From a virus (Duplodnaviria; Heunggongvirae; Uroviricota; Caudoviricetes): a DNA stretch of 34,379 bases. The notes beneath the pieces are model-generated. The model worked only from the letters and a program-made list of their open reading frames with translations. It ran no database searches and was not told the origin of the DNA. Positions 2,154-17,090 of this stretch are shown here, piece after piece; the stretch's first letter is position 1, and every line of letters begins with the position of its first letter. The stretch is from IMG/VR virus record IMGVR_UViG_2734482779_000009; one strand, 5' to 3'. The position numbers and the translations under genes were made by a program.

Positions 2154-2553
2154 TATATTTTTTCTCCAGTTCAATATTTTTCAGGTCATTTTCCGCAAAG
2201 AGGATTGCTGTTCTGGCACTCCGCAATCGTGCTTTTGCATTTTTCTCTTCACGTTCAAGGACTGCGACAGATTCACGAAGTGCTTCCAGCTTTTTATGAA
2301 GACGTTTAATTTCATGTACGATATTTTCAGCATTACGGGCACGCTCAAGGATAAATTCAAATGGATCCAGTACAGACCCGCACAGTGAACAGGTCAGCGT
2401 CCGGCTGATTTCAGAGACTGTTGTCCGGGTATGCCGGCACTGGTTTTGTTCGTTATTCTTCCGTTCAGAAATAACCACATTCAGCAGTTTTTGGGCTTCT
2501 GCATCAGGATCTGGCTGAAGCAGATGAATAATGTTATCGCTGTCGTTATCCAT
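2146..2553 (-). CDS. Hypothetical early protein (135 aa) with a Cys cluster and C-terminal coiled coil
   Basis: Start at the internal ATG 2553, with GGAGG 8 nt upstream, overlapping the upstream gene stop; the ORF-track N-terminal extension is probably not translated. Confidence 0.5.
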   Translation of the reverse strand: MDNDSDNIIHLLQPDPDAEAQKLLNVVISERKNNEQNQCRHTRTTVSEISRTLTCSLCGSVLDPFEFILERARNAENIVHEIKRLHKKLEALRESVAVLEREEKNAKARLRSARTAILFAENDLKNIELEKKYNG

Positions 2554-3235
2554 TATCCGCCTCCAGTTTCTGTTGTTCCTGCCCACTGACCGGGCGGTGC
2601 AGTCTGACGTTCTGCCCTTCTCGAAACCCCGCATAGCGCGAGGCGTCGCCATTGCGACTTCTTCCCGGTTTACGCGCCCTGGTGGTTTGCGTCTGCGGGT
2701 ATTTATGTTCCAGCCACTGCTGCATCAGTTCACGTTCGTCATCGGTCAGGGCGAAGGACTGTATTTCACTGATAACGGCCAGCACCCAGCCTTCAGCAAA
2801 CTGGTCGCCACGGCTGGTGCGGGTGGCGGTTTTTATTCTTTTGTTCTGTGCACTGATATATTGCTGACGCGCCTTTTTCAGCTGACGGGCCAGCACTTCC
2901 CGGGTGTACGCGGCCAGTGCGGCCCGTTCCCGGTTGCCGTAGAACCCCACACCCGGATATGTGCCGGGGTGAATGATGGAGTTAACACCAAATGCCTCGC
3001 GGATGATGTTCATCAGGCCCAGCATGTAGCGCGGCGGACGGAGGCTGCCTGTCGGCCAGTAGTGACTGATGGTTTCATCAATATCACTCATGGCGATGTC
3101 GGAATGTGTGATGCCGTGAACATCCATCAGTTTACGGGCACGGCGCAGTGCCAGAGCGGCCTCGTGCGGGTTGCCGGATGCGGCCAGTGCCAGCAACTTT
3201 TTCAGTTTCTCAATGTGTTTATTCTGGTCTGTCAT
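2546..3235 (-). CDS. DUF2786-like phage protein (229 aa)
   Basis: N-terminus MTDQNKHIEKLKKLLALAASGNPHEAALALRRARKLM matches the DUF2786 pattern common in prophage early regions; ATGA overlap with the next gene. Confidence 0.55.
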   Translation of the reverse strand: MTDQNKHIEKLKKLLALAASGNPHEAALALRRARKLMDVHGITHSDIAMSDIDETISHYWPTGSLRPPRYMLGLMNIIREAFGVNSIIHPGTYPGVGFYGNRERAALAAYTREVLARQLKKARQQYISAQNKRIKTATRTSRGDQFAEGWVLAVISEIQSFALTDDERELMQQWLEHKYPQTQTTRARKPGRSRNGDASRYAGFREGQNVRLHRPVSGQEQQKLEADNG

Positions 3236-12014: not shown

Positions 12015-12758
12015 TTACGTGTTTAATGAACGTAAGTGAGGTTTATCCGCTGTCTGCATAATTCCGATAGCCAGTGCGAGGGGAAGTAATTCCGGGGAAA
12101 CTTTTTCAAACAGCGATTCCCATTCTCCTCTCGCCATCACTCTGTCCAGCCCGCCCTCCAGCTGCATTTCAGCAATCTTCCTGATTTCCCGGAACAACGC
12201 CGCTTTGATCTCTTCATGCTCAGCTTTATTTTCCGGTGTCAGAATGTATTCGTCGAAGAACCGGGGAGACTGGTTAACGGGGATTGTGTTCACCGGGAGG
12301 TGTTCCTGCTTCCCGTACTTCGGGGCCGAAAAACATTCTGTTGGCTGACCGGTGAGTTTACGTAACTCCTTCATGAGCAGCTCCTGATCGTAAACTGTCA
12401 TCAGTGCCGCAATGGTGGCATGCAGTGCATCGGGTAGTATCCAGGGTTGCCGGCCCGTGGGGCATATAACATCCAGCAGCTCATTCGTCCGACAGATACG
12501 CTCCTCGCCGTATGACAACAGGCCCTGTCCCGTGTATTCCTCCAGCCTGATCACTGTGCCAGCCCGTGGTTTCTGCCATGTGCTCAGATCATCCCCGCTC
12601 ATACGGCGCTCATCGTCCACGTCTGCGGCATCGACAATGACGCTGCCTCCGAATTCCTGTTTTATCACCTCTTCTGTCCGCGCCAGTATGTAACTTTTAC
12701 CGCTGCCCACAGGACCGGACACGGTGACAGTGATGACCGGATTCAGTGTATGTGTCAT
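12015..12758 (-). CDS. Hypothetical protein with N-terminal Walker A / kinase-like P-loop (GPVGSGKS); function unknown
   Basis: 247 aa; Walker A at residues 15-22, then VIVDAADVDDE about 20 aa later (kinase-like acidic motif); C-terminal ~170 aa without recognisable motifs; transcribed divergently from the lysis/late operon. Confidence 0.6.
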   Translation of the reverse strand: MTHTLNPVITVTVSGPVGSGKSYILARTEEVIKQEFGGSVIVDAADVDDERRMSGDDLSTWQKPRAGTVIRLEEYTGQGLLSYGEERICRTNELLDVICPTGRQPWILPDALHATIAALMTVYDQELLMKELRKLTGQPTECFSAPKYGKQEHLPVNTIPVNQSPRFFDEYILTPENKAEHEEIKAALFREIRKIAEMQLEGGLDRVMARGEWESLFEKVSPELLPLALAIGIMQTADKPHLRSLNT

Positions 12759-12862
12759 GTTGCATTCTCCTCTGTGAATAATTCATCGTTTATCCTGCAC
12801 ATCCCGTATCCCCGGCTCTCTTAACGCGCTTTAAAATCCTTCGCGCCCCGTATTTGTGATGC

Positions 12863-12885
12863 TGTCTCCACCAGACAAGGAGACA
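12863..12885 (+). promoter_or_regulatory. Stem-loop overlapping the holin ribosome-binding site (possible translational control)
   Basis: TGTCTCC (12863-12869) / GGAGACA (12879-12885), 9-nt loop; the 3' arm contains the GGAG of the Shine-Dalgarno; ATG at 12889. Confidence 0.3.
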
Positions 12886-12888
12886 CAC

Positions 12889-13239
12889 ATGAAAAACCTG
12901 AAAAAATTCATTCCCCCTGTTAAAAAACCTCGCCTCAGCGGCTGGCTGCTGACCTCAGTGCTGCTGCTGGGCACCATCGCTCTGGTATCGCCACAGCAGT
13001 TGCCTGTTGTGATCTACAAGCTGGCACTCATCACGCTGGCAGCAGTGCTGGGTTACTGGCTTGACCGTTCGCTCTTCCCCAAAGCCCGTCCCGGTCAGTA
13101 CCTGAAACATGACGACAGGCTGATGGCTGATGGGCGTTTCCCTGTACAGACCGGCCTTCACCTGGTGTTTTCTGCTGCGTTAATCCGCCGTGCACTGATT
13201 GTTGCAGCGGTCTGTCTGGCCGTTGCAATGGGGCTTTAA
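12889..13239 (+). CDS. Holin-like membrane protein (three predicted TM helices), first gene of the lysis cassette
   Basis: 116 aa from the ATG at 12889 (RBS AAGGAGA); hydrophobic segments GWLLTSVLLLGTIALV, VVIYKLALITLAAVLGYWL and LVFSAALIRRALIVAAVCLAVAMGL; directly upstream of the endolysin. Confidence 0.5.
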   Translation: MKNLKKFIPPVKKPRLSGWLLTSVLLLGTIALVSPQQLPVVIYKLALITLAAVLGYWLDRSLFPKARPGQYLKHDDRLMADGRFPVQTGLHLVFSAALIRRALIVAAVCLAVAMGL

Positions 13240-13241
13240 TC

Positions 13242-13979
13242 ATGAACTGGCCGCAGATAACCTGGATTGTATGCATGTCCCTGAAGCTGGCGTTCGAAGC
13301 CTTTCGGGTCTTCATCAGAACCGAACGCCTGTCAGTCCGCGCCGGGACCTTTCTGGTTCATATGGCACGGGTATTCTTTGTCGCAATGTTGCTCTGGTGT
13401 GGCGGCTTTTTCAGTCAGGCATCCGCAGCACAGCCTCCGCGGGCTGCCCTGCAGTATCGCGATGATGTGATCCGTAATGCCCGGCTTGAATGGGGACTGT
13501 CTGCGCCGGTGGCTGATTTCGCTGCGCAACTGCATCAGGAAAGCGGCTGGCGACCTGATGCGGTCTCGCCGGCTGGTGCTCAGGGGCTGGCGCAGTTCAT
13601 GCCTGCCACTGCCGACTGGATAAGTCAGTTGATGCCGGGGCTTAACAGCCGTGAGCCGTTTAATCCGGCATGGGCTATCCGGGCGCTGGTCAGCTATGAC
13701 CGCTGGCTGTGGCAACGTGTCAGCGCCGCCAGCGACTGCGAGCGTATGGCCATGACGTTGTCGGGCTATAACGGTGGCCCGGGCTGGGTGCGCCGTGACC
13801 AGCGGCTCGCCGCACGTCTGGGGCTGGACAGTCAGCGCTGGTTCGGACATGTCGCCACGGTGAATGCCGGACGCAATGCTGCCAGCTGGCGGGAGAACCG
13901 CCAGTACCCGCAGCGTATTCTCTTCACGCTGGCACCGCGTTATCTGTCATGGGGAGGGGCAAGCTGTGTGGGGATATAA
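13242..13979 (+). CDS. Endolysin: lytic transglycosylase (SLT domain) with N-terminal signal or SAR sequence
   Basis: SLT signature AAQLHQESGWRPDAVSPAGAQGLAQFMPATA; internal ATG at 13362 gives MARVFFVAMLLWCGGFFSQASAA, a signal/SAR-like N-terminus, so the true start may be 13362. Confidence 0.8.
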   Translation: MNWPQITWIVCMSLKLAFEAFRVFIRTERLSVRAGTFLVHMARVFFVAMLLWCGGFFSQASAAQPPRAALQYRDDVIRNARLEWGLSAPVADFAAQLHQESGWRPDAVSPAGAQGLAQFMPATADWISQLMPGLNSREPFNPAWAIRALVSYDRWLWQRVSAASDCERMAMTLSGYNGGPGWVRRDQRLAARLGLDSQRWFGHVATVNAGRNAASWRENRQYPQRILFTLAPRYLSWGGASCVGI

Positions 13980-14592
13980 ATTACGGTTACTGCCGTGGCG
14001 ATCCATTGCGCTGACGTTGTTCCTGGTTGTCTGCATTCTGTCAGTCTGGCTGACTGGATACAGTTCAGGGCGCGACCGGGCCAGAGCTGACGGTCAGGCG
14101 GCGCTCAGTAAGCTGCAGGCGGAGTTTGACGGATACAGAACGGCACAGGCGAAGCGCGAGGTGGAAGCGCTACGGGCATGGTCGCAGCGTTATCAGGCGC
14201 AGGTGGCCGCCGGTCATCAGGCAGAGAGCAACCATCTGGCGCAGATTGCGCAACTGGAGCGCACCAACAGACAACTACAGAGGCAGGTGAACGATGTCAC
14301 ACAACGCTGGATGGATGAAAAAGGCAAAACGCATCCCATTGAGTGCGTGTTTACTCGCGGTTTCGTGCAGCAGTACAACGCCGCCCTCGGTTACGACGAC
14401 ACTGCTTCCGCCACTGCCGCCGGCACTGGCGCAGCGTCCGGGGATGCTGAAGCCGCTGACACCCGGCTACGCAACTCCGGTGTCACCCAGCAGGACATCC
14501 TCGCCAACCTCATTGACAACGCTCTCCAGTGCCGCGCCTGGCGAAGTCAGGTGAACGGGCTGCTGGATGAACGGGAAGGATTACAGCAATGA
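13966..14592 (+). CDS. i-spanin (Rz-like): N-terminal TM helix plus coiled-coil periplasmic domain
   Basis: GTG at 13966 preceded by GGGGAGGGG; TM IALTLFLVVCILSVWL; Q/A/R-rich coiled coil; overlaps the endolysin stop. Confidence 0.6.
   Translation: MWGYKLRLLPWRSIALTLFLVVCILSVWLTGYSSGRDRARADGQAALSKLQAEFDGYRTAQAKREVEALRAWSQRYQAQVAAGHQAESNHLAQIAQLERTNRQLQRQVNDVTQRWMDEKGKTHPIECVFTRGFVQQYNAALGYDDTASATAAGTGAASGDAEAADTRLRNSGVTQQDILANLIDNALQCRAWRSQVNGLLDEREGLQQ
14315..14554 (+). CDS. o-spanin (Rz1-like) outer-membrane lipoprotein embedded in the +1 frame of Rz
   Basis: MKKAKRIPLSACLLAVSC: basic n-region, hydrophobic core and lipobox-like AVSC; the mature part is Pro/Ser/Thr-rich (about 15 Pro); lies entirely inside the Rz ORF. 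Confidence 0.55.
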   Translation: MKKAKRIPLSACLLAVSCSSTTPPSVTTTLLPPLPPALAQRPGMLKPLTPGYATPVSPSRTSSPTSLTTLSSAAPGEVR

Positions 14593-14915
14593 CACTGCAG
14601 GTTGAATTCTGGACGGTGGTGAGTTTTCTGCTCACCTTCATGGGGTTTGTTGGAGGGCTCGCCAAATGGTTGTTCAGTAAAACAGAAGAACGCCAGGCGG
14701 CACGATTCGCCTCCCTTGAACAGGCCCTGCAACAATCCGCCTCCAACTGGGGCGAGCTGGAAAAAGAATTTATGCGATTTAAAGCGGATTTACCGCTGAA
14801 TTATGTCCGTCGCGAGGATTATATCCGTGGCCAGACAGTTATCGAGGCCAAACTGGACGCGCTTTACAACAAACTGGAAGTGGTACAGCAGTACCGCAAT
14901 ACCGGAGGTCAATAA
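14589..14915 (+). CDS. Small membrane protein (108 aa) after the spanins; possibly lysis-associated (releasin-like position)
   Basis: N-terminal TM FWTVVSFLLTFMGFVGGLAKWLF; ATGA overlap with Rz. Confidence 0.45.
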   Translation: MTLQVEFWTVVSFLLTFMGFVGGLAKWLFSKTEERQAARFASLEQALQQSASNWGELEKEFMRFKADLPLNYVRREDYIRGQTVIEAKLDALYNKLEVVQQYRNTGGQ

Positions 14916-15226
14916 TGGTCGATATTACCCGGGTACGCCGCGAATCCCTGCGCTGGAGTCTGCTGGTTGCCCTGAACAAAACCCGCCCTTACACCGCCAG
15001 CGAGACGTTGCTGCTGGAAGTGTCCCGCGCCATCTACCCGGACACCACGCAACTGGAACTGCGCCGTGAGCTTGATTACCTGGCAGATCGCAAAATGGTG
15101 GAGCTGGAGAGGAGACCGTCCGGTGACTGGTTTGCCGATCTGAGTCGCCTTGGTGTGGATATTGTGGAATACACCGTGGAATGCGGCCCCGGTATTGCCC
15201 GCCCGGAAAAATACTGGAGTGAGTGA
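14915..15226 (+). CDS. Hypothetical late protein (103 aa)
   Basis: Stop-start overlap with the neighbouring gene; no recognised motif. Confidence 0.45.
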   Translation: MVDITRVRRESLRWSLLVALNKTRPYTASETLLLEVSRAIYPDTTQLELRRELDYLADRKMVELERRPSGDWFADLSRLGVDIVEYTVECGPGIARPEKYWSE

Positions 15227-15228
15227 TT

Positions 15229-15777
15229 ATGGGACGTCGCAGCAGTATTGATACTCTCCCGACAGAAGTACGCCGCTGGCTGGAGCGGGCGCTGACGGAG
15301 AATAACTTCAGTGGATATGCCCGACTGGAAGCCCTGCTGAAGGAGAAGGGATACGTCATCACCCGCTCTTCCCTGCAGCGGTTCGGCTACAAAATGGAGC
15401 GACAACTGGCCCGCATCCGCGCCGCCACCGAGGCTGCGCGTCTGATGGCGCAGGAAGCCGGTGACGAGGCGGACGATCGTTCTGCCGGGATGATGGCACT
15501 TATTCAGACCGAGATGCTGGATGTTCTGATGCGTCTGCAGGAAATCGGGGAAAGTGATGATCCTGCAAAACGCGCAAAACTGCTGGCCACTGCTTCGGAA
15601 AGTATAGCCACACTGGTCCGTGCTTCGGTGACCCACAAGCGATTCCGGGCCGAGGTGCTGGCAAAAATTGAGGCACGGATGAATGCTCTGGAAAAACAGG
15701 CGAAGTCCGGCGACACCCGCCTGAGTCTGGAAACCCTGAAGATGGTGCGGGAACAGATTTACGGGGTGATCTCATGA
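15229..15777 (+). CDS. Mu gp27-like protein (DUF3486), putative terminase small subunit
   Basis: HTH-like N-terminus (RRWLERALTENNFSGYARLEALLKEKGYVI) and coiled-coil C-terminus; immediately upstream of the large terminase. Confidence 0.55.
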   Translation: MGRRSSIDTLPTEVRRWLERALTENNFSGYARLEALLKEKGYVITRSSLQRFGYKMERQLARIRAATEAARLMAQEAGDEADDRSAGMMALIQTEMLDVLMRLQEIGESDDPAKRAKLLATASESIATLVRASVTHKRFRAEVLAKIEARMNALEKQAKSGDTRLSLETLKMVREQIYGVIS

Positions 15778-17090
15778 CAGCGGCCATTCAGCTGTATCCC
15801 TATCAGCAGTCGTGGTTTCTGGATCGTGCCCGTTTCAAGATTGGTATGTTTGCCCGCCAGACGGGCAAGACGTTCACCACCACGCTGGAACTGGTTGATG
15901 ACTGTTTTGAAACAGAGGCATCAGGGGGACGCACTCGCTGGGTGATCCTCTCGCGCGGGGAGCGTCAGGCAAAAGAAGCCATGGTGGAGGGGGTGAAAAA
16001 ACACTGCAGCGCCTACCGGATGGCGGCCCGTGAGGTGGAAAGTTATTACCGTGCTGAAAGCGGCGAACGCTACACCATGCTTGAGGTGGAGTTACCCGGT
16101 GGCTCCCGTATCACGGCCCTGCCGGCAAATCCCGACACGGCACGTGGGTTTGCGGCTAACGTCTTTCTGGATGAGTTCGCCTTCCATGCCGACAGTCGCA
16201 AAATCTGGACCGCCCTGTTTCCGGTCATTTCCAACGGCTACAGACTGCGTGTGACATCGACGCCGAACGGCAAGGGAAACAAGTTTTATGAACTGATGAC
16301 CAGCAACGCCCTTGAAAATGTCTGGTCACGTCACATCGTGGATATTTACCGTGCCGTGCGCGACGGCCTTCCGCGTGACATTGCACAGATGCGACAGGCG
16401 CTCAACGATGATGACGCCTGGGCACAGGAGTTTGAACTGAAGTGGCTGGATGAGGCATCGGCCTGGCTGACGTTTGAACTGATTGACGGCGTGGAGCACG
16501 ATGCTGCCGGGCTGCCGGTGCACTATACGGGTGGCCCCTGCTTTGTGGGGGTGGATATTGCTGTCCGTAATGACCTGTTTGTGATCTGGGTGCTTGAACA
16601 GGTGGGGGATGTCTACTGGACCCGGGAAATCATCACCCGGAAACGGGCCACCTTTGCTGAGCAGGATGCTTTGCTGGATGACGTATTTTTCCGTTATCGC
16701 GTGCTGCGCTGCTGTATGGATCAGACAGGAATGGGGGAAAAGCCTGTGGAAGATGCTCAGGAGCGCCACGGCAGGAGTCGTGTGGAGGGGGTGATATTTA
16801 ACAGCCCGAACAAGCTCACCCTCGCGACCCGTGGCAGGGAGATGTTTGAGGACCGCTGCCTGCGTATTCCGGCGGGAGATGTGGTACTGCGCAGTGATCT
16901 GCATAAACTCCGTAAGATCACCGGACCTACCGGAGCGCCTCGCTTTGTGGCGGAAAGTGATGCAGCAGGTCACGCCGACCGTACATGGGCCTGTTTTCTG
17001 GCTATTAACGCCACTGACGGACCGTCAGGGCCGGTGGTGGCGCGTTCACGCCGCCGCCGTGAAGCCGCCCGCATGCTGGAGGGATTCTGA
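15774..17090 (+). CDS. Terminase large subunit (Mu gp28-like)
   Basis: 438 aa; Walker A-like FARQTGKT near the N-terminus; acidic nuclease region; ATGA overlap with both neighbours. Confidence 0.8.
   Translation: MTAAIQLYPYQQSWFLDRARFKIGMFARQTGKTFTTTLELVDDCFETEASGGRTRWVILSRGERQAKEAMVEGVKKHCSAYRMAAREVESYYRAESGERYTMLEVELPGGSRITALPANPDTARGFAANVFLDEFAFHADSRKIWTALFPVISNGYRLRVTSTPNGKGNKFYELMTSNALENVWSRHIVDIYRAVRDGLPRDIAQMRQALNDDDAWAQEFELKWLDEASAWLTFELIDGVEHDAAGLPVHYTGGPCFVGVDIAVRNDLFVIWVLEQVGDVYWTREIITRKRATFAEQDALLDDVFFRYRVLRCCMDQTGMGEKPVEDAQERHGRSRVEGVIFNSPNKLTLATRGREMFEDRCLRIPAGDVVLRSDLHKLRKITGPTGAPRFVAESDAAGHADRTWACFLAINATDGPSGPVVARSRRRREAARMLEGF

Follow-up and report, generated by a model that had tools for sequence, protein, structure and literature searches.

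Organization of the lysis cassette

The window, by which we mean the whole stretch of DNA analysed here (34,379 nt; IMG/VR record IMGVR_UViG_2734482779_000009, Caudoviricetes), contains a lysis cassette in which genes for a holin, an SLT endolysin and an Rz-like spanin are adjacent, in that order, and are followed by genes for a Mu gp27-like small terminase and a large terminase. A DDE transposase is encoded upstream of the cassette, and the Mu-like gene set of the window is apparently complete. We classify the element, from its sequence, as a BcepMu-like (Mu-type transposable) prophage. The positions of the relevant features are listed in Table 1.

Table 1. Lysis-cassette genes in the window and predicted features of the gene embedded in the i-spanin gene.
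Feature	Position	Strand	Details
Holin, first lysis-cassette gene, 116 aa	12889..13239	+	PF13272 Holin_2-3, E=1.1e-41; phrog_1528 holin, E=6e-55
Endolysin, lytic transglycosylase (SLT)	13242..13979	+	PF01464 SLT, E=4.4e-15; phrog_669 endolysin, E=1.6e-66
i-spanin (Rz-like), 208 aa, GTG start	13966..14592	+	phrog_1403 "Rz-like spanin", E=1.5e-70
Predicted embedded o-spanin (Rz1-like prolipoprotein)	14294..14554	+	+1 frame of i-spanin gene; homology, conservation, selection
Predicted signal peptide and lipobox	14315..14368	+	MKKAKR n-region, IPLSACLLAV h-region, box AVSC with the predicted cut between S and C; PROSITE PS51257-type rule
Pro-rich conserved core of mature o-spanin (LPPLPPALAQRPGMLKPLTPGY)	14423..14488	+	Over variable i-spanin linker

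An AAGGAGA Shine-Dalgarno sequence lies just upstream of the holin ATG (12889), and this start is used by gene callers in identical loci. The start of the endolysin gene is uncertain: gene callers place it at 13242 or 13275, giving products of 245 aa or 234 aa, respectively. The N-terminal stretch of the endolysin is hydrophobic, and its gene matches those for BcepMu gp22 and the B3 endolysin at the DNA level.

The match between the i-spanin and phrog_1403 covers positions 5-211 of the 212-position profile. The GTG start overlaps the end of the endolysin gene by 14 nt and is preceded by a Shine-Dalgarno duplex of -12.0 kcal/mol; the 208-aa product is also called in public assemblies. A 242-aa ORF beginning at ATG 13864 was considered as an alternative form of Rz and rejected, since an exact look-up returned nothing while the 208-aa GTG product is on record.

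The i-spanin has one hydrophobic segment, at about residues 11-31 (19-residue Kyte-Doolittle maximum of 2.28 at residues 13-31, with no other above 1.6), and the basic residues that precede it (K5, R7 and R12) suggest a type II, N-in/C-out orientation. A single-sequence AlphaFold2 model (mean pLDDT 68), used only for secondary structure, places residues 11-119 in one helix (pLDDT ~80-89), in which the membrane segment runs on into a long helical stretch, and residues 175-207 in another (pLDDT ~60); the linker between them, at 121-161, is modelled with low confidence. With moderate overall confidence, the model points to a periplasmic part made up of two helical segments and a linker. The periplasmic part contains two cysteines: Cys127, which lies within CVFT and is invariant in the family, and Cys189. 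At least one periplasmic cysteine is available for a homotypic disulfide in 507 of 528 spanin systems (PMC6139136), and with Cys127 and Cys189 in Rz the predicted spanin pair therefore fits this rule.

An embedded reading frame with the features of a lipoprotein gene

The preliminary description proposed that an Rz1-like o-spanin gene is embedded in the +1 frame of the i-spanin gene, and assigned it to 13966-14592. Those positions delimit the host Rz gene; the embedded gene proper begins at 14294 or 14315 and ends at 14554. Translation of 14315-14554 on the plus strand gives a 79-aa product, MKKAKRIPLSACLLAVSCSSTTPPSVTTTLLPPLPPALAQRPGMLKPLTPGYATPVSPSRTSSPTSLTTLSSAAPGEVR, which ends at a stop codon, and the stop-free +1 stretch opens at ATG 14294, giving an o-spanin precursor of 86 aa. 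The Shine-Dalgarno duplex ahead of ATG 14294 is calculated at -14.3 kcal/mol, compared with -4.9 kcal/mol ahead of ATG 14315. Because of this far stronger pairing, ATG 14294 (MSHNAGWMKKAKR...) is the likelier start, but the assignment is still ambiguous. The mature o-spanin is unchanged whichever of the two is used. A scan of 12500-15500 for promoters and terminators found nothing above shuffled expectation, and no separate promoter was seen for the embedded gene.

The product reads MKKAKRIPLSACLLAVSC, followed by a 61-residue tail after Cys18 (counted from MKK), in agreement with the Pro/Ser/Thr-rich tail of about 60 residues that had been noticed earlier. The signal has a basic n-region, a hydrophobic core of 10 residues and the box L-A-V-S-C; Cys18 is encoded by 14366-14368, and the residue at +2 is Ser. 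The mature protein would be 62 aa long, with 13 Pro, 10 Ser and 11 Thr (55% Pro, Ser and Thr together; 21% Pro), and contains no cysteine apart from the one predicted to be lipidated. Its C-terminus is hydrophilic (…SSAAPGEVR), and the C-terminal hydrophobic segment of a unimolecular spanin such as T1 gp11 is absent.

The predicted precursor passes the PROSITE PS51257-type rule, with Cys at position 18 and Lys or Arg within the first seven residues. In this respect the lipobox-like AVSC signal of the preliminary description holds up; with Ala at -3, however, the box falls outside the strict consensus [LVI][ASTVI][GAS]C and is non-canonical. The PROSITE-type rule is itself loose, with about 10 other matches in the six frames of the window. 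We ruled out Cys12, in the box LSAC, as the residue that is lipidated: the hydrophobic core would be only five residues long, the position rule fails, and alignment with the boxes of relatives favours Cys18. Within the family, most boxes are AVSC (61 of 88 distinct sequences), the others being LASC, AASC, LVSC, LSAC, VASC and VAGC; in sister lineages, LVSC, LASC or LSAC occupies the position of the window's AVSC. The +2 residue is Ala, Ser, Gly or Val across the 88 distinct members, and Asp in none.

The window allele is shorter than those of most enterobacterial relatives, with a mature o-spanin of 62 aa versus 71 aa and an Rz of 208 aa versus 216-217 aa. Together with the Ala at -3, this could mean that the prophage is defective and its embedded o-spanin gene decayed and without function, as marked by a nine-codon deletion and a non-canonical lipobox. 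Among the relatives, one prophage, from Mixta mediterraneensis, does have a truncated Rz and no longer has the lipobox Cys. However, the deletion in the window is in frame for both genes and falls within a stretch that is variable in both proteins, relatives in Pectobacterium and Brenneria also have mature o-spanins of 62-64 aa, and the supposedly aberrant box is that of the family majority. Furthermore, public assemblies contain the identical 208-aa Rz allele in 55 blocks, within intact-looking 35-kb prophage contigs, and the window itself has the apparently complete Mu-like gene set described above. We consider decay very unlikely.

Conservation and selection in two overlapping frames

How much of this could arise by chance? 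When the synonymous codons of Rz were randomized, a +1 ORF with an initial Met and a length of at least 79 aa appeared in 5-11% of trials, and a lipoprotein-like +1 ORF (PROSITE PS51257-type rule) in 0.4-0.9%. Hence, the window sequence by itself is a modest, weak signal for an embedded gene. ORF length was dropped as a sole argument, since equal lengths are that frequent in the randomizations, and so was the lipobox pattern, since it has further matches elsewhere in the window. The case for the embedded gene is convincing because of conservation in relatives, and not because of the single-sequence signal.

We assembled 120 homologous Rz sequences, i.e., the window and 119 fetched loci, from Enterobacterales, Burkholderia, Pseudomonas, Cupriavidus and Neisseriaceae, phage BcepMu included. 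The preliminary description would have been refuted if the frame were not conserved in homologous Rz genes; a +1 lipoprotein ORF with a lipobox is in fact present in 118 of the 120, representing 77 distinct proteins, although these loci are not independent events because related sequences share ancestry. The ORF is retained even where Rz identity drops to about 26-34%. A lipoprotein rule accepts the observed gene in 11 of 12 deep lineages but only 0.1-2% of synonymously shuffled versions; it never accepts the +2 frame.

Selection on the second frame is also apparent from nucleotide changes. In pairwise counts, Rz-synonymous differences are 0.168 inside the overlap versus 0.333 upstream, and indels within the overlap are all multiples of three. 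At Rz codons 153-172 the diversity pattern shifts to the Rz1 frame. Within the Pro-rich core of the predicted mature o-spanin (Table 1), nucleotide diversity is 0.346, 0.113 and 0.181 at the first, second and third positions of Rz codons, respectively; the wobble position therefore tracks the Rz1 frame. Conservation of the majority residue across the core is 7-9 out of 10 in the Rz1 frame versus 3-7 out of 10 in the Rz frame, and the core motif is common to the window o-spanin, BcepMu gp24 and B3. Both frames are under purifying selection, and the constraint is partitioned between them. This locus is a further clean example of purifying selection acting on two proteins in overlapping frames.

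Alternatively, the +1 ORF might be a mere by-product, arising from how Rz is composed and conserved: a GC-rich linker that is rich in Ala, Gly and Thr, when shifted by one base, becomes stop-free and rich in Pro, Ser and Thr, and no protein need be made. The randomizations above show how readily an ORF of this length arises, lipobox-like patterns are common in out-of-frame sequence of the window, gene finders almost never call the ORF, and no family model matches it. A by-product is nonetheless hard to reconcile with a lipoprotein signature that persists in such distant Rz homologues and is so rare in shuffled versions, with the halving of Rz-synonymous change in the overlap, or with codons 153-172, where constraint is lowest at the Rz1 wobble position and Rz1 is more conserved than Rz. 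The in-frame indels, the strong Shine-Dalgarno pairing ahead of ATG 14294 and the annotation of the homologous BcepMu ORF as Rz1 likewise argue against it, and we regard a by-product as highly improbable. The claim of an Rz1-like o-spanin in the +1 frame is thus supported, mainly by comparison with relatives. The reading frames, their signals, the homology of Rz and Rz1 and the purifying selection are established here by sequence analysis, and they indicate that the +1 ORF is very probably a genuine o-spanin gene, encoding one half of a two-component embedded spanin in a BcepMu-like prophage.

A proposed mechanism for spanin production and function

A gene within a gene, as for Rz and Rz1, is an ordinary means by which phages break the outer membrane. 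We propose that a single late mRNA carries the holin, SLT endolysin and spanin genes. Initiation at GTG 13966 would yield the i-spanin, inserted into the inner membrane in type II orientation and with two helical segments and a linker in the periplasm, and internal initiation in the +1 frame, most likely at ATG 14294 and otherwise at 14315, would yield the prolipoprotein. Signal peptidase II would cut before Cys18, which would then be lipidated, and the Lol pathway would deliver the o-spanin to the outer membrane; we predict this destination because the +2 residue is Ser, not Asp. The 62-residue, Pro-rich mature o-spanin would then make contact across the periplasm by binding to the C-terminal part of the i-spanin. 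Lysis would be completed by the spanin complex, which would fuse inner and outer membrane after removal of the peptidoglycan through holin and endolysin. Processing, sorting, complex formation and membrane fusion are what we infer from the lambda Rz/Rz1 paradigm (PMC6139136). For the BcepMu-like spanin family, no lipid modification, outer-membrane location, i-spanin binding or requirement in lysis is reported in PMC6139136 or PMC2628397.

Could the lipoprotein be real and yet not be a spanin subunit? Small phage lipoproteins with other roles exist, and a protein of the superinfection-exclusion or serum-resistance type (such as lambda Bor or the phage-encoded Cor/Llp) would be an example. However, the gene in which the ORF is nested matches Rz-like spanin profiles and closes a lysis cassette; the ORF and the Rz-like gene occur together in every lineage examined; and the cassette shows no further candidate for a lipoprotein or u-spanin. 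The product of the ORF is also short and Pro-rich, as is lambda Rz1 (PMC6139136). A role outside the spanin complex is extremely improbable, and we retain the o-spanin assignment.

Annotation and distribution of the embedded gene

The o-spanin sequence has no match in Pfam, PHROG or NCBIfam. These null searches reflect the absence of models and are not evidence against the embedded gene. When ~5.8 billion proteins were searched with the 79-aa o-spanin, only three incidental calls came up: two frameshift or chimeric calls and one 83-aa Salmonella "hypothetical protein". The embedded gene is therefore almost never called. The region is matched in 637 of 5,426 complete E. coli genomes.

The main value of our analysis is as a correction to annotation: neither PhiKM nor KP12, the closest phages, has the o-spanin in its record, and an E. 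coli prophage that shares the cassette lacks it in RefSeq as well. Any engineering or scoring of lysis cassettes in BcepMu-like prophages of E. coli, Klebsiella and Salmonella would miss a predicted essential lysis gene, and "silent" edits in Rz risk breaking the embedded o-spanin.

Comparison with known spanin systems

The relationship to the lambda spanin lies in architecture and in presumed function, with no detectable homology. As in the window, the lambda o-spanin gene lies wholly within the i-spanin gene, in the +1 frame, over the i-spanin linker and distal helix, and encodes a short, Pro-rich lipoprotein without Asp at +2; the lambda i-spanin likewise has an N-terminal transmembrane segment, two helical segments and a linker (PMC6139136). 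Neither spanin protein of the window matches any Pfam family at E<=0.01, and therefore neither matches the lambda-type Rz (Phage_lysis) or Rz1 models. There are also differences of detail. The mature lambda o-spanin is 40 aa long versus 62 aa in the window, where the penta-proline run is missing and the core reads LPPLPP...RPG...PLTPGY; lambda Rz1 has a periplasmic Cys at position 29, which the mature o-spanin of the window lacks; and the endolysin partner in the window is, unlike that of lambda, an SLT transglycosylase with a hydrophobic N-terminus.

Within enterobacteria, Escherichia phage PhiKM, Klebsiella phage KP12 (clone KP12_2), phage Phi06_2974 B and many E. coli prophages carry orthologues in which the embedded gene is unannotated. 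Rz is labelled "putative lipoprotein" or "hypothetical protein" in records of this type, and "putative lipoprotein" in those of PhiKM and KP12. The predicted signal peptide and lipobox of these orthologues, MKKVRAIPLSACLLAVSC, are nearly identical to those of the window. Genes flanking the spanin module are 93-100% identical to those of PhiKM and an E. coli prophage, whereas the module itself is a divergent allele, with 48-89% nucleotide identity per 100 nt; at the protein level, the window Rz is 62-70% identical to the Rz of these orthologues and is nine codons shorter. Only the spanin module is swapped for a divergent allele between prophages that are otherwise 93-100% identical.

In Pseudomonas phage B3 (ORF27) and in JBD25, JBD18 and JBD67, Rz is homologous to that of the window (33% identity in the alignment), and the +1 frame again encodes a lipoprotein, with the box AAGC and a shared PPALKQRPGPPP core. 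The B3 ORF differs in that it extends 7 nt beyond the Rz stop, and those of related Pseudomonas loci extend 16 nt; strictly, these genes are overlapped and not embedded. Kongari et al. (2018) list BcepMu/phiE255 and the B3/JBD phages among the embedded spanin families, and state that embedded and overlapped architectures never occur in one family (PMC6139136). It is conceivable, though we would not yet favour the idea, that the enterobacterial genes form a large unmodelled o-spanin family, all but absent from protein databases, in a superfamily that bridges the "embedded" and "overlapped" types; the exchange of spanin alleles could mean diversifying selection or matching to the host envelope.

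The closest annotated system is that of BcepMu (NC_005882), in which gp23 is annotated as "Rz-like spanin" and gp24 as "Rz1, out of frame, embedded proline-rich protein". The arrangement is that of the window: the Rz1 gene is embedded in the +1 frame, it ends 38 nt ahead of the Rz stop in both, and the cassette has the same order of holin, SLT endolysin, Rz/Rz1, small membrane protein, gp26-like protein and small terminase. Comparison with the embedded Rz1 genes of related phages, suggested at the outset, gave a BLASTP match between gp24 and the window o-spanin (49% identity over 49 aa, E=9e-9), alongside that between gp23 and the i-spanin (33% identity over 186 aa, E=2e-14). Both pairs share motifs, CVFT(R/A)GFV in Rz and LPPxLxxRPxxxxPLxPGY in Rz1. 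In BcepMu, however, the box is LSAC and the mature Rz1 has an extra Cys, where the window has AVSC and no extra Cys, and BcepMu Rz lacks the second C-terminal Cys of the window Rz. Kongari et al. define families at a threshold of 40%/40% (PMC6139136); identity between the window and BcepMu is below this, and the enterobacterial proteins would therefore form a separate cluster. The window thus adds one further case to a known type of embedded spanin, and what is known of spanins is unchanged.

Lysis cassette and prophage setting

The window is a BcepMu-like, Mu-type transposable prophage, as judged from the gene content of its lysis cassette and of the genes after it, a transposase with an rve domain upstream of the cassette on the opposite strand, and its nearest phage records, which are Bcepmuvirus. 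The cassette and the genes after it are tightly packed on the + strand from 12.8 to 17 kb, and the embedded ORF lies within the cassette.

Features of the lysis cassette and adjoining genes (window coordinates)
Feature	Coordinates	Strand	Matches
Holin	12889-13239	+	PF13272, E=1.1e-41; phrog_1528
Lytic transglycosylase endolysin	13242-13979	+	PF01464; phrog_669, E=1.6e-66
Rz-like ORF (i-spanin)	13966-14592	+	phrog_1403 'Rz-like spanin', E=1.5e-70, full profile covered
Embedded +1-frame ORF (o-spanin, Rz1)	14294 or 14315 to 14554	+	BcepMu gp24
108-aa membrane protein	14589-14915	+	phrog_462, label 'lipoprotein', E=1.6e-36
103-aa protein	14915-15226	+	
Small terminase, Mu gp27-like	15223-15777	+	
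Large terminase	15774-17090	+	

Two neighbors of the spanin genes deserve comment. Gene callers place the endolysin start at 13242 (245 aa) or 13275 (234 aa), and its N-terminus (13242-13430, +) includes MARVFFVAMLLWCGGFFSQASA, followed by AQPP. This stretch may be a secretory signal or SAR-type anchor, since it is weakly hydrophobic and Gly/Ala-rich, with an AxA-like site at its end. The 108-aa protein, whose gene shares 4 nt with the end of Rz, has a hydrophobic N-terminal segment and is the counterpart of BcepMu gp25; having no cysteine, it cannot be a lipoprotein. Public assemblies contain its exact sequence in 35,119 blocks.

The i-spanin

The Rz start is most likely GTG 13966, so that the gene shares 14 nt with the end of the endolysin gene. 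GGGGAGGGG sits 8 nt ahead of this codon (duplex with the 16S rRNA tail, -12.0 kcal/mol), and exactly the resulting 208-aa product is present among public gene calls, in 55 blocks of assemblies. By contrast, the longer ORF that would begin at ATG 13864 is absent from the record, and we rejected that start. The protein has a single hydrophobic segment (residues 13-31), and a single-sequence AlphaFold2 model, used for secondary structure only (mean pLDDT 68), places helices at residues 11-119 and 175-207 around a low-confidence stretch at 121-161. The predicted architecture is thus the i-spanin layout of lambda Rz, in which a transmembrane domain is followed by two helical segments with a linker between them (PMC6139136). 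Nearly all two-component spanins have at least one periplasmic cysteine (PMC6139136); Cys127 (invariant, in CVFT) and Cys189 of the i-spanin are compatible with this rule. The mature o-spanin has no cysteine beyond the lipidation residue.

A predicted embedded lipoprotein gene

The preliminary description placed an Rz1-like lipoprotein in the +1 frame of this gene, with a Pro/Ser/Thr-rich tail of ~60 residues. The observation is confirmed, although the coordinates it gave (13966-14592) are those of the host Rz gene and not of the embedded one. The +1 frame is open from 14294 to a stop at 14552-14554. From ATG 14315 it encodes MKKAKRIPLSACLLAVSC followed by 61 residues, and 13 Pro, 10 Ser and 11 Thr are found among the 62 residues of the mature protein. 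The likelier start is ATG 14294 (MSHNAGWMKKAKR…), which follows GAGGCAGGTGA and has a duplex energy of -14.3 kcal/mol, as compared with -4.9 for ATG 14315. The upstream Met is kept in most lineages and the downstream Met is missing from some Pectobacterium and Dickeya relatives; the annotation of BcepMu gp24 likewise uses an upstream start. The mature lipoprotein is identical with either start.

The predicted lipidation residue is Cys18 (counted from ATG 14315), in the box AVSC. This box passes a PROSITE PS51257-type rule and misses the strict consensus [LVI][ASTVI][GAS]C because of Ala at -3. Cys12 (box LSAC) was rejected as the lipidated residue: it would leave a hydrophobic core of five residues.

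Considering the window sequence alone, the ORF exceeds chance only modestly. When synonymous codons were shuffled with the Rz protein held fixed, 5-11% of randomizations contained an M-started +1 ORF of at least 79 aa, and 0.4-0.9% contained one that also passed the PS51257-type rule. The same rule gives ~10 further matches, plainly non-genes, in the six frames of the window.

Comparative evidence settles the reality of this predicted gene. We compared the window with 119 related loci, drawn from annotated phages, an E. coli genome, one genome per species, and IMG/VR. A +1 ORF with a lipobox is present at the equivalent place in 118 of the 120 sequences (77 distinct proteins), in hosts that include Escherichia, Salmonella, Citrobacter, Pantoea, Erwinia, Pectobacterium, Dickeya, Brenneria, Lonsdalea, Burkholderia, Pseudomonas, Cupriavidus and a Neisseriaceae genome. 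Loss of the frame in homologous Rz genes, which would have spoken against the gene, is therefore not what we see. Both exceptions (L018 and L110) are one Mixta mediterraneensis prophage, which looks to be decaying, given its change of the lipobox Cys to Tyr (AVSY) and its truncated Rz. Around 2501-3082 of that locus, divergence or truncation affects both frames toward the 3ʹ end, and it is the sole homologue lacking a lipobox.

Among 12 deep lineages, with Rz identity to the window as low as 26%, the real sequence passes the lipoprotein rule in 11, whereas only 0.1-2% of its synonymously shuffled versions do so. The twelfth fails solely the clause requiring K/R in the first seven residues, and has an LCAC box. 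The +2 frame passes in none of the 12. Family boxes are AVSC (61 of 88 distinct sequences), LASC, AASC, LVSC, LSAC, VASC and VAGC. Outer-membrane sorting of lipoproteins requires a +2 residue other than Asp; the 88 sequences have A, S, G or V at this position, and none has Asp.

Selection on both frames

A codon alignment of 82 distinct sequences (Rz at least 40% identical to that of the window) indicates that selection acts on the predicted Rz1 frame. Among pairs sharing an Rz residue, the codon differs in 33.3% before the overlap versus 16.8% inside it. Nucleotide diversity at Rz codon positions one to three follows the normal pattern before the overlap (0.255, 0.210 and 0.433); at Rz codons 153-172 it is 0.346, 0.113 and 0.181, such that the Rz1 wobble position is freest and the Rz wobble position, which is the second position of Rz1, is constrained. 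The variable Rz linker (…ATAAGTGAASGDAEAAD…) coincides with the best-conserved Rz1 core (LPPLPPALAQRPGMLKPLTPGY), and the conserved distal helix of Rz with the variable Rz1 tail. Every indel in the overlap is a multiple of three. All of these counts were taken from sequences that share ancestry and do not represent independent events.

The spanin module of the window is a divergent allele in an otherwise near-identical prophage. Identity to an E. coli SCU-105 prophage and to phage PhiKM is 93-100% per 100 nt in the flanks (12800-13700 and 14600-15000), and falls to 48-89% between the end of the endolysin gene and the Rz stop (13800-14590). Within the module the best-conserved block, at 88-89%, is dual-coding (14300-14400). 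The pattern is suggestive of an exchanged cassette or of rapidly evolving spanins.

Annotation

The importance of the embedded o-spanin is mostly practical. Records for PhiKM (L001 1667-2317) and Klebsiella phage KP12 (L002 1634-2287) name the i-spanin 'putative lipoprotein' despite its lack of a lipobox. In the E. coli SCU-105 RefSeq record (L003 1601-2212), PGAP calls it 'hypothetical protein', from a start codon so placed that most of the transmembrane segment is lost. All three records lack an annotation of the embedded gene, and no gene caller reported it among the assemblies looked up. A search of ~5.8 billion proteins for the o-spanin returned only three incidental matches. Two database proteins, P0001 and P0003, in which Mu gp27-like or Rz sequence is fused to Rz1-frame sequence (…LPPLAPALAQRPGNLKPLTPGY…), are probably products of frameshifted or chimeric assembly, and it is mainly through them that the o-spanin is represented in protein databases. 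Of 5,426 complete E. coli genomes, 637 match the region, and in 82 of those the match covers at least 80% of the query. The KP12 clone (KP12_2, OM835952.1), filed under Vequintavirinae, is a BcepMu-like genome of 35 kb, with holin, SLT, Rz and Mu gp27-like terminase genes, and is probably a co-purified induced prophage under the wrong taxon.

Proposed mechanism and comparison with known spanins

We have high confidence that the pair is an embedded spanin of the Rz/Rz1 type; the embedded gene is an ordinary member of that type, so far unannotated. By analogy with lambda, and with the sequence features needed for each step present here, the i-spanin would anchor in the inner membrane, and the lipoprotein would undergo signal peptidase II processing and lipidation and be carried to the outer membrane by Lol. 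The C-terminal parts of the two proteins would bind each other across the periplasm and, with the peptidoglycan destroyed by holin and endolysin, the complex would fuse both membranes. The likeness to lambda Rz/Rz1 is one of architecture and presumed mechanism; a Pfam search detected no sequence relation to either protein.

The o-spanin identity proposed in the preliminary description is supported by homology and geometry shared with Burkholderia phage BcepMu (NC_005882), whose gp23 is annotated 'Rz-like spanin' and whose gp24 carries the label 'Rz1, out of frame, embedded proline-rich protein'. The window i-spanin is homologous to gp23 (E=2e-14) and the o-spanin to gp24 (E=9e-9), and in the window, as in BcepMu, the Rz1 frame stops 38 nt short of the Rz stop. 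Kongari et al. 2018 (PMC6139136) list (BcepMu, phiE255) and (B3, JBD25, JBD18, JBD67) among embedded i-/o-spanin families, clustered at a threshold of 40%/40%. Since Rz identity is 28-33%, below that threshold, the enterobacterial spanins would count as a separate family, yet they are evolutionary relatives. In phage B3 the +1 lipoprotein ORF (2811-3119 of locus L005) ends 7 nt past the Rz stop (Rz 2501-3112), and in three related Pseudomonas loci (L030, L032 and L034) it ends 16 nt past it. Strictly, this arrangement is 'overlapped', though B3 is classed as embedded in PMC6139136. Hence, the homologous superfamily seems to cover both embedded and overlapped arrangements.
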